Below the pieces are notes generated by a model. That model was not told where the DNA came from and made no database searches. It saw only the letters and a program-made list of their open reading frames with translations. Below are positions 20,632 to 46,787 of a stretch of 52,855 nt of DNA, one piece after another (positions within the stretch are counted from its first letter, which is position 1; every line of letters starts with the position of its first letter). A program made the translations under genes and the position numbers. Location of the stretch: the NCBI GenBank assembly GCA_964544225.1, contig CAZIZK010000001.1, positions 1-52,855 on the forward strand, written 5' to 3'. This DNA comes from an uncultured Candidatus Saccharibacteria bacterium. GTDB taxonomy: Bacteria; Patescibacteriota; Minisyncoccia; Phycocordibacterales; UBA9973.

Positions 20632-20743
20632 GGGTGTATTATAGCAAAATTATGTAAAATTTTTATGTTTGAAAAATAGGCCAATTATAGTATTATAGGC
20701 TAATCATATTGCCGTAATAGCTTTTTGGTAAAAAATATAATTA

Positions 20744-23494: not shown

Positions 23495-23570
23495 TTTATT
23501 TTATATATTTAATAATGTTAATATCCTATTAACCTACAATATATAAGACGGGTGGGTGTATGAAAAATTA

Positions 23571-23611
23571 CAATATAAAAATCACCGATTAAATCGGTGA
23601 TTTTTATATTG
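23571..23611. terminator. terminator after tRNA cluster, 20-bp perfect arms, 1-nt loop
   Basis: CAATATAAAAATCACCGATT-A-AATCGGTGATTTTTATATTG, directly abutting the tRNA-Asp 3' end. Confidence 0.85.
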
Positions 23612-23685
23612 CGCAGTCGACGGGACTCGAACCCGCAACCTCCCACGTGACAGGCGGGTGCTCTAACCAGTTGAGCTACGACTGC
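23612..23685 (-). tRNA. tRNA-Asp(GTC)
   Basis: GCAGTCG/CGACTGC acceptor stem, CCCGC-CTGTCAC-GTGGG anticodon arm, G73. Confidence 0.96.
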
Positions 23686-23710
23686 AATTATATGTCTGCA
23701 AAATGCAGGG

Positions 23711-23784
23711 TGTCGGCGGGGGGAATTGAACCTCCGACCTTGGGCTTATGAGTCCCACGCTCTAACCAACTGAGCTACGCCGAC
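23711..23784 (-). tRNA. tRNA(CAT), elongator Met or Ile2
   Basis: GTCGGCG/CGCCGAC acceptor stem (paired 1:72), TGGGA-CTCATAA-GCCCA anticodon arm. A31:G39 and A51:C63 mismatches. Met versus Ile2 is not resolvable by eye. Confidence 0.9.
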
Positions 23785-23832
23785 ATATTTTCGAATAGTG
23801 ATATGTTTTGAAACCTGTCACATTTCGAATTG

Positions 23833-23903
23833 TTGCGGGGCTGGGAATCGAACCCAGGTCTCAAGGTTATGAGCCTTGCGAGATACCTCTTCTCTACCCC
23901 GCT
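23833..23903 (-). tRNA. initiator tRNA-fMet(CAT)
   Basis: AGCGGGG/CCCCGCA with unpaired 1:72, A11:U24, and CAAGG-CTCATAA-CCTTG anticodon arm. Confidence 0.9.
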
Positions 23904-23972
23904 ATATTATTGTATTGCAAAATAAATTAGAGTGGCTCATAACCTTGGTTATTCGCGCTATATGTCCTTTCG

Positions 23973-23998
23973 GAGATACCTCTTCTCTACCCCGCTAT
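23973..23998 (-). repeat. exact 26-bp copy of the tRNA-fMet 5' end
   Basis: GAGATACCTCTTCTCTACCCCGCTAT occurs at 23880-23905 and 23973-23998. Confidence 0.95.
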
Positions 23999-24070
23999 TT
24001 ATTAAAAGAGTCAATAAAACGCTCTTTTACGAGCATTTAATGATTATACCTAAAATCTAGATTTTTGCAA

Positions 24071-24748
24071 TTATATTGCCTTGAATTCGTCAAAGACTGT
24101 TTCGTATAGGCGTATTGTACGGCGAGCTTCGATCTGCGTTAGGGAGAATTCTGAACCAGCATGGGCTATGCCATTGCGTATATTATGAGCCTCCCAGGCA
24201 TTGTCTATACTTGCAAAAGAGTTGTCCCGAGCCCCCTTTAGCCTATCACCCAGGCTCTCCCCTTCATAACCACGCTCTTGCAATAACTCATCGAGCATAC
24301 TGTCGGCTTCGAGTATTGCAATACGCCAATCATTTGGTGAATCGCTACCTATGAGGCCCAATATATATTTCCATCGTGGGTTCACCTTTGCCTCCTCTTC
24401 AGCATCACGAGCCATGGCAAGTTTGATTTCGTGATCTATCTCCTCCTTCTCATGATTCTGGATTTCACGCATACGCACAAGTGAAAATATAATAATGGCA
24501 ATAAGAAATATAGAAATGATCGCAGAAACATTACCCACTACAACCCAAGTATGTGGATTACCAATACCAGATATTACAGGACCCACACCGTCAGCTATCT
24601 TTCCGAAAATGTATTCGATATTTAAAAATTGTGGATCAAAGAGTGCTGTCGCACCAAAAACAATAGTGGCTAGTATTACTAAGCCCCCTATTATCCAAAT
24701 ACCTGCGTCAGAGGAAGGTGGATGTTCATCATGCTTTGGTCCTGCCAT
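24071..24748 (-). CDS. hypothetical membrane protein (2 TM plus helical cytoplasmic domain)
   Basis: WRIAILEADSMLDELL..RGYEGESLGDRL...AWEAH.IRN.IAH pattern. Function unknown. Confidence 0.75.
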   Translation of the reverse strand: MAGPKHDEHPPSSDAGIWIIGGLVILATIVFGATALFDPQFLNIEYIFGKIADGVGPVISGIGNPHTWVVVGNVSAIISIFLIAIIIFSLVRMREIQNHEKEEIDHEIKLAMARDAEEEAKVNPRWKYILGLIGSDSPNDWRIAILEADSMLDELLQERGYEGESLGDRLKGARDNSFASIDNAWEAHNIRNGIAHAGSEFSLTQIEARRTIRLYETVFDEFKAI

Positions 24749-46506: not shown

Positions 46507-46512
46507 ATATTA

Positions 46513-46577
46513 AATTTAACTAAAGGACCAATAACACACGGATCCATGTTAATTTAACTAAAGGACCAATAACACAC
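46513..46577. repeat. tandem 27-bp exact direct repeat (period 38)
   Basis: AATTTAACTAAAGGACCAATAACACAC at 46513-46539 and 46551-46577. Confidence 0.95.
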
Positions 46578-46672
46578 ATCTCCATATTGGTTACAGATGC
46601 ATATTAGCATATAAAAAACATAAATAAAATAAGGCTTTTATAATTCTTAAAATATAGTATAATGCCTGTTAC

Positions 46673-46759
46673 GGAGGCGTGGATGAGTGGTTTAAATCAA
46701 CGGTTTACTAAACCGTCGAACCTTAATCGGTTCCGTGAGTTCGAATCTCACCGCCTCCG
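46673..46759 (+). tRNA. tRNA-Ser with ACT anticodon (A34)
   Basis: GGAGGCG/CGCCTCC acceptor stem, ACGGT-TTACTAA-ACCGT anticodon arm, long variable arm GAACC/GGTTC, GTGAG-TTCGAAT-CTCAC T-arm, G73. Confidence 0.9.
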
Positions 46760-46787
46760 CAGAGTCGTGATAGCACGAGATACATCG

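Follow-up and report, generated by a model that had tools for sequence, protein, structure and literature searches.

A conserved tRNA-derived unit upstream of the initiator tRNA gene in Patescibacteria, with a proposed role as a cis-acting leader

Introduction

In Escherichia coli, the tyrT repeats are tandem repeats of variable copy number that contain a tRNA end fragment; they lie downstream of the tRNA and copy its 3' end. To our knowledge, no antisense tract occurs in tRNA-linked repeats of this type. T-box riboswitch leaders are 5' leaders complementary to the anticodon of the cognate tRNA; they read it with a 3-nt specifier, pair with the tRNA NCCA end in an antiterminator bulge, carry a terminator or an SD-sequestering helix and adopt two alternative folds. 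In synthetic RNase P riboswitches (Ender et al. 2022, PMC8925977), which are designed and ligand-gated, the leader is masked. Genomic islands in tRNA genes, as defined by Islander (PMC4383910), require an integrase and a length of 2-200 kb. Among the eukaryotic LTR elements encoding a reverse transcriptase (RT), Ty5 primes from the initiator tRNA cut in its anticodon loop (PMC5371799).

The element analysed here is a 93-nt unit upstream of the tRNA-fMet gene of an uncultured Candidatus Saccharibacteria bacterium (GTDB order Phycocordibacterales, UBA9973). It was studied in the window, i.e. the whole stretch of 52,855 nt (contig CAZIZK010000001.1 of assembly GCA_964544225.1), and in the source genome (770 kb, 98% complete). 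With the tyrT repeats it shares tandem tRNA-fragment repeats, but it lies upstream of the tRNA, copies the 5' end and carries an antisense tract. As in T-box leaders, a 5' leader is complementary to the anticodon of its cognate tRNA and two alternative folds are predicted. However, an 11-14-nt Watson-Crick tract faces the whole loop and the stem here, the element has no antiterminator or terminator, and it is built from tRNA copies and precedes the tRNA itself. With the T-box covariance model (stem I carrying the specifier loop, an AG bulge and T-loops), neither the gathering score nor a cut-off of E<=10 yielded a match, no antiterminator bulge was present in an alignment of 59 sequences, the 93-nt unit contained no terminator, and Rfam 15 gave no covariance-model match over the leader. 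The RNase P riboswitches (PMC8925977) demonstrate that leader structure can control the 5' maturation of a tRNA, so that the mode proposed below is feasible; by contrast, the present element occurs naturally, lacks an aptamer, and would exchange an acceptor strand and mask an anticodon.

With tRNA-gene islands (PMC4383910) the element has in common a displaced tRNA end fragment on an allowed side and in an allowed orientation (a 5' fragment, upstream, on the same strand), an exact empty site in the form of a deletion allele, and tandem arrays. It differs in its size (93 bp, outside the 2-200 kb range), in carrying neither an integrase nor cargo, and in the conserved antisense hairpin that comes after the fragment. 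The likeness to Ty5/copia elements (PMC5371799) is one of sequence only, namely a 14-nt complementarity to the initiator anticodon stem-loop; the element has no RT, no LTR and no dispersal. No description of it was found in the literature covered, which took in few of the subscription journals, and it failed every family test that was run. Judged from sequence, the element is real, conserved, undescribed and outside every family tested, and its function is a proposal.

Organization of the locus

All features of the locus are on the (-) strand. The intact tRNA-fMet gene (23832..23903) is of the initiator type, with an A1:A72 mismatch, two of the three G-C pairs of the anticodon stem and the anticodon CAT at 23869-23871. 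Downstream lie an elongator-type tRNA-Met (23708-23785) and a tRNA-Asp (23611-23685), both probably co-transcribed with tRNA-fMet, and a terminator-like hairpin (23570-23612) 3' of tRNA-Asp. The reading of the second CAT tRNA as elongator Met is supported by the presence of a tRNA-Ile with a TAT anticodon elsewhere in the source genome (C1:91549-91623). The spacer between tRNA-fMet and tRNA-Met (23786-23831) contains a hairpin, and the complement of the tRNA-Asp anticodon loop lies inside it; in relatives this spacer starts with a copy of the first 6 bases of the elongator tRNA. Directly 5' of the tRNA cluster is the gene of a conserved, uncharacterized membrane protein of 225 aa (24071-24748), apparently in the same place in many relatives.

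The removable unit (23906..23998) is of the form designated type A. It begins with a copy of tRNA-fMet positions -2 to 25, i.e. the acceptor 5' strand and the D arm (23973..23998), which repeats 23880-23905 exactly over 26 nt with a spacing of 93. This copy, flank included, had been noted in the preliminary description and was correct at every coordinate. It carries a second RNase P-like +1 at 23996. Hairpin H1 (23961..23978) competes with the D stem of the copy; the GAAA hairpin reported earlier was present at this locus, but its 3-bp core is weak when folded alone (-2.6 kcal/mol) and the loops of its homologues have no conserved GNRA. Hairpin H2 (23934..23961) consists of a conserved 5' arm of non-tRNA sequence, with a tandem G-A mismatch, paired with the antisense tract (23934..23947). 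This tract forms a perfect 14-nt inverted repeat with 23862-23875, which would arise by chance in a stretch of ~100 nt with a probability near 100 x 4^-14 = 4e-7. It is an exact reverse complement, as first described, and covers G30-G43 in standard numbering, whole anticodon loop included, rather than the complete arm (27-43). A 'third tRNA start' had also been proposed between these features. It is part of the conserved block and is unchanged in species whose tRNA begins with C; since this start does not follow changes of the tRNA, it is not a third tRNA copy. The unit ends with an AT-rich spacer (23906..23933) that is free in sequence and constrained in length. The 26-nt and 14-nt strings were found at this locus alone in the 770-kb genome, and a covariance model likewise found this one locus, with 90 bits (the locus sequence was among those used to build the model).

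A sigma-70-type promoter-like site (24043..24070; 10/12 match, 16-nt spacer) lies upstream of the entire module, with an inferred start at ~24036, and the promoter scan found none inside the unit or its spacer. A similar motif was present 5' of the first copy or of the tRNA at 68 element-bearing and 56 other loci. The small 5' hairpin at 24021..24034, followed by a U run, is considered to be outside the module because module-free relatives carry it too. At the loci examined the unit is about 79-129 nt long and contains no ORF. It has no complete cloverleaf (neither T arm nor 3' acceptor strand), and ARAGORN and Rfam called the downstream gene only; the unit is thus not a second functional tRNA-fMet gene. 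RNase P RNA and protein are both encoded in the source genome.

Assembly check and empty site

Misassembly was ruled out by single contigs from two independent studies that span the module (23867-24400 and 23860-24400) with 0 differences, one of them possibly derived from the source sample and the other from another study, and by the recurrence of the module in other records. In a strain of ~98% identity (third study), the contig omits exactly 93 nt, the 26 repeated letters fit both sides of the junction, and 9 differences are seen over 428 flanking bases. Near-identical strains thus include one with a precise empty site, which is compatible with either gain or loss of the unit. The unit is real, conserved, tRNA-derived and removable precisely at the 26-nt direct repeat.

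Distribution and copy number

A conservation check had been proposed with the preliminary description; the module recurs across genus, family, order and class. In the genus, the tRNA 5' pattern was matched in 78 of 93 genomes and 76 loci were typed by pattern: 18 were type A, 18 type S, 4 remnants, and the rest had none, so that the module stands between promoter and tRNA-fMet in about 36/76 species. Type S is more tRNA-like, the 5' arm of its hairpin being the sense anticodon loop. Tandem copies ranged from 1 to at least 4. Some copies had decayed to remnants or were interrupted by palindromes. GC-rich palindromic inserts break the D-arm region of the pseudo-copy at nine loci (L021, L072, L079, L105, L125, L135, L173, L183 and L484), and the downstream block of palindrome-bearing elements is often intact.

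Beyond the genus, the element was found at lower frequency in the family, order and class, and in none of the other sets searched. When the type-A block alone was searched (control 1), it was recovered in 23/200 family genomes and 12/45 genera; 22 of the 23 matches lay between a 5' copy and tRNA-fMet, the last being at a contig end, and the blocks sit 34-52 nt upstream of tRNA-fMet where the contig permits. The strict antisense-plus-tRNA pattern matched 10/401 genomes of the order, in five further families, and 94 metagenome stretches; it matched 0/400 other genomes of the phylum, a pattern that misses type S elements without exact antisense. Two type-S elements were found by the covariance model in another order of the class; the type-S pair L163 and L186 is possibly distant. 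Most of the named records with the element carry the label Paceibacterota, Nomurabacteria or another Patescibacteria name. Carriage by phages was rejected: viral contigs gave 0 matches for the combined pattern (and 9 block-only matches outside a tRNA context), and 0/117 phage tRNA-Met-like genes had the unit.

On a tree of a single marker (FastTree, N-terminal part of LigA), presence of the element required 21 changes against 24.2 when shuffled (p=0.11), a patchy distribution not distinguishable from random. Types A and S required 7 changes against 11.6 (p=0.008) and hence follow the host tree. Together with the randomized spacer, this argues for vertical descent; the sequences suggest an old, vertically inherited element that would be polymorphic within species through recombination at the repeat.

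Conservation

The 14-nt 5' arm of H2 showed 93% pairwise identity among 66 type-A elements, against 55% in the adjacent spacer (54% when shuffled), and this contrast indicates that the core is under selection. Gene conversion cannot maintain the block because part of it is absent from the tRNA. The unit was found only upstream of tRNA-fMet, with a spacer of 30-54 nt to the tRNA +1. The 5' copy was exact in 59/80 cases and, at six polymorphic sites, agreed with the tRNA of its own host in 97% of comparisons (56% for a random tRNA), which could be explained by conversion or by selection.

The antisense tract pairs with tRNA position 31 in 77/85 elements and with position 30 in 71/85 (G-U allowed), and the base facing position 42 is Watson-Crick in 55/85, against 43 expected, with G facing C42 in 7/9; the permutation tests behind this tracking and these pairing counts ignore relatedness. 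In the module generally, the 3' arm of H2 is antisense to tRNA nt 30-42, and pairing fades beyond tRNA 29 and 43. The apparent conservation of the antisense core is inflated, because most type-A elements were found by requiring its 9 nt; in the unbiased genus set the exact core was present in 17 of 36 elements, about half, and it was absent from 14/18 type-S elements. Two elements of another order match the variant stem of their own tRNA beyond the local hairpin.

Predicted RNA structure

In 59 homologues, H1 was paired in 82% of cells, with weak covariation. The local fold of H2 has -6.7 kcal/mol, and in 66/73 elements the transcribed strand gave the more stable hairpin; the variants in its core are G-U wobbles, and no compensatory change was seen there. 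A K-turn in H2 was considered and rejected, since the tandem G-A is present but no 3-nt bulge is in register.

When the unit and the tRNA were folded together, as had been suggested earlier, the antisense tract was predicted to pair with the anticodon arm (duplex of -23.1 kcal/mol). In this minimum free energy (MFE) fold the 5' strand of the copy pairs with the 3' acceptor strand of the tRNA and the T arm is kept (MFE z -6.5 at this locus). This alternative fold (fold 2 below) was favoured over a constrained cloverleaf by 9 kcal/mol at this locus and by a median of 8.5 kcal/mol in type A, values that overstate it because nearest-neighbour energies leave out the tertiary contacts and modifications of the tRNA, which favour the cloverleaf. 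The anticodon was masked in 53/56 type-A folds. Type S without exact antisense gave the alternative fold almost no advantage (median 0.7 kcal/mol). Among successively truncated forms, the predicted change to the alternative fold came once the anticodon arm was complete.

The 5' half of the real tRNA-fMet can form a strong non-native self-hairpin (-9.8 kcal/mol). In 52/59 type-A copies position 26 is changed to C, which weakens this hairpin in the copy to -5.4 kcal/mol, and in 47/59 the acceptor strand of the copy showed less self-pairing than that of the real tRNA. Pairing of the spacer with the real 5' strand was seen at this locus and was rejected as a general feature, as it is not conserved (mean z -0.02). 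One RNA run gave coverage of tRNA bodies only, not of the leader, with no sign of the organism's presence.

Proposed function and alternative explanations

We propose that the unit is an accessory cis leader that partitions the folding of pre-tRNA-fMet and damps or delays its output in a copy-number-tuned manner, a model to which we give a probability of roughly 0.45. The leader would be transcribed from the upstream promoter, and the precursor would have two folds. In fold 1, H1 and H2 would form locally, the true cloverleaf would form as well, and RNase P would cut at its genuine +1. Fold 2 would arise when the nascent anticodon arm displaces a metastable H2 and the 5' strand of the copy pairs with the 3' acceptor strand of the tRNA, giving a tRNA-shaped RNA with a masked anticodon that would be held back, refolded or degraded. 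The change at position 26 in type A would free the spare strand by weakening the self-hairpin of the copy. The net effect would be a damped or delayed output of initiator tRNA, and recombination at the repeat (0 to 4+ copies) would tune this output within populations.

A cis-antisense leader sequestering the initiator anticodon was one of the two readings in the preliminary description. The evidence in its favour is circumstantial: the promoter upstream is conserved, the anticodon is masked in nearly all predicted type-A folds and the antisense tract follows stem variants of the tRNA. On the other side, only about half of the unbiased set keeps the exact core, the tract has a local hairpin partner, and the unit is dispensable, as roughly half of the genus and one near-identical strain do without it. 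More tentative is the wider model of a natural riboregulator, in which a leader made of tRNA pieces would swap the 5' strand, mask the anticodon and gate the supply of fMet-tRNA, dialled by copy number (0-4+) within populations; it would then belong to a broader class, with 5'-copy leaders on many tRNAs of Patescibacteria. In the literature covered, no report was found of a natural leader that controls bacterial tRNA supply through the tRNA's own folding, but only engineered switches (PMC8925977). Because every start of translation is limited by the initiator tRNA, gating at this point, if true, would give the genome-reduced Patescibacteria a compact control of growth or dormancy. The question is directly testable, as a near-identical pair of strains with and without the exact unit exists in nature and the RNA is only 165 nt long.

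A selfish, non-autonomous DNA micro-element with the 5' part of the tRNA gene as its insertion site, or the minimal remnant of such an element, is rather unlikely; the 26-nt repeat would be the attachment core, and a trans-acting recombinase or homing machinery would recognize the conserved hairpin. The precise empty site, the tandem arrays, the lack of significant phylogenetic signal in presence, the configuration accepted by Islander (PMC4383910) and the 5' copies at other tRNAs of the source genome all fit such an element, which would be an unusually small tRNA-targeting mobile unit. However, it has no cargo or integrase and is far below island size, all its occurrences were next to tRNA-fMet and none was in a viral contig, its spacer is randomized while types A and S follow the host tree, and no RT was found in the source genome. 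An association with GIY-YIG genes was rejected, as their motifs lie near only 3/157 loci. The absence of an RT match (PF00078) in the 98% complete genome also bears on a primer-binding site for a retroelement primed by a tRNA half, as in Ty5/copia; although the tract complements the initiator anticodon region and follows the host tRNA, the unit occupies a single locus without dispersed copies and has no coding capacity, and we consider this explanation scarcely credible.

That RNase P frees the leader to act in trans, either as a small RNA or as a protein-binding hairpin, was judged improbable. The freed leader could serve as a sponge for the CAU anticodon loop or as a decoy for anticodon nucleases or tRNA-binding proteins. 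Both arms of H2 are invariant rather than covarying, as in a recognized motif, type S keeps a sense anticodon loop in its hairpin without exact antisense, and the duplex predicted in trans has -23 kcal/mol. The distribution is accessory, as is typical of defence traits. The strict position and the constrained spacer length, however, point to action in cis, and no gene of the PIN/VapC family was found in the source genome. The other early reading was a template-switch or integration scar. As a one-off event it finds no support as a description of the present state, since the module recurs in dozens of species of several families and its near-invariant core stands beside a randomized spacer; an origin by fold-back or duplication is plausible. 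A neutral duplication or fold-back scar sustained by gene conversion and slippage would account for the construction from tRNA pieces (type S can be read as tRNA 1-30 followed by an insert, 32-44 and a fold-back), for the many decayed copies and losses and, through conversion, for a 5' copy that follows the host tRNA. It is nevertheless very unlikely: the block of non-tRNA sequence hardly varies between genera or between families, next to a spacer that cannot be aligned, and this contrast in the alignments largely refutes it.

5' copies upstream of other tRNA genes

For 6/37 tRNAs of the source genome, the first 12 bases recur upstream with 10/12 or more positions matching, against 0/37 downstream. 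Weaker 5' copies precede several other tRNAs, and the fMet element is the only one among the 5' copies with an antisense tract. Pseudo-copies of the 5' end lie at about -73 upstream of tRNA-Val, Phe (two copies), Ile, Thr, Lys and Ala (C1:259786-259935, C2:201144-201290, C2:85855-85930, C3:22750-22827, C4:7268-7343 and C3:7815-7890), and five of them have a shared or near-shared motif in place of the D loop. Within the window, a degenerate copy of the tRNA-Thr(GGT) 5' end (20711-20732, (+) strand, 11/12 match) lies 33 nt upstream of its gene, and two tandem degenerate copies of the tRNA-Ser(GCT) 5' end, of ~38 nt each, lie upstream of theirs (46507-46585, (-) strand). A tRNA-Ser with an ACT anticodon, which is very rare in bacteria, is present at 46673-46760 on the (+) strand.
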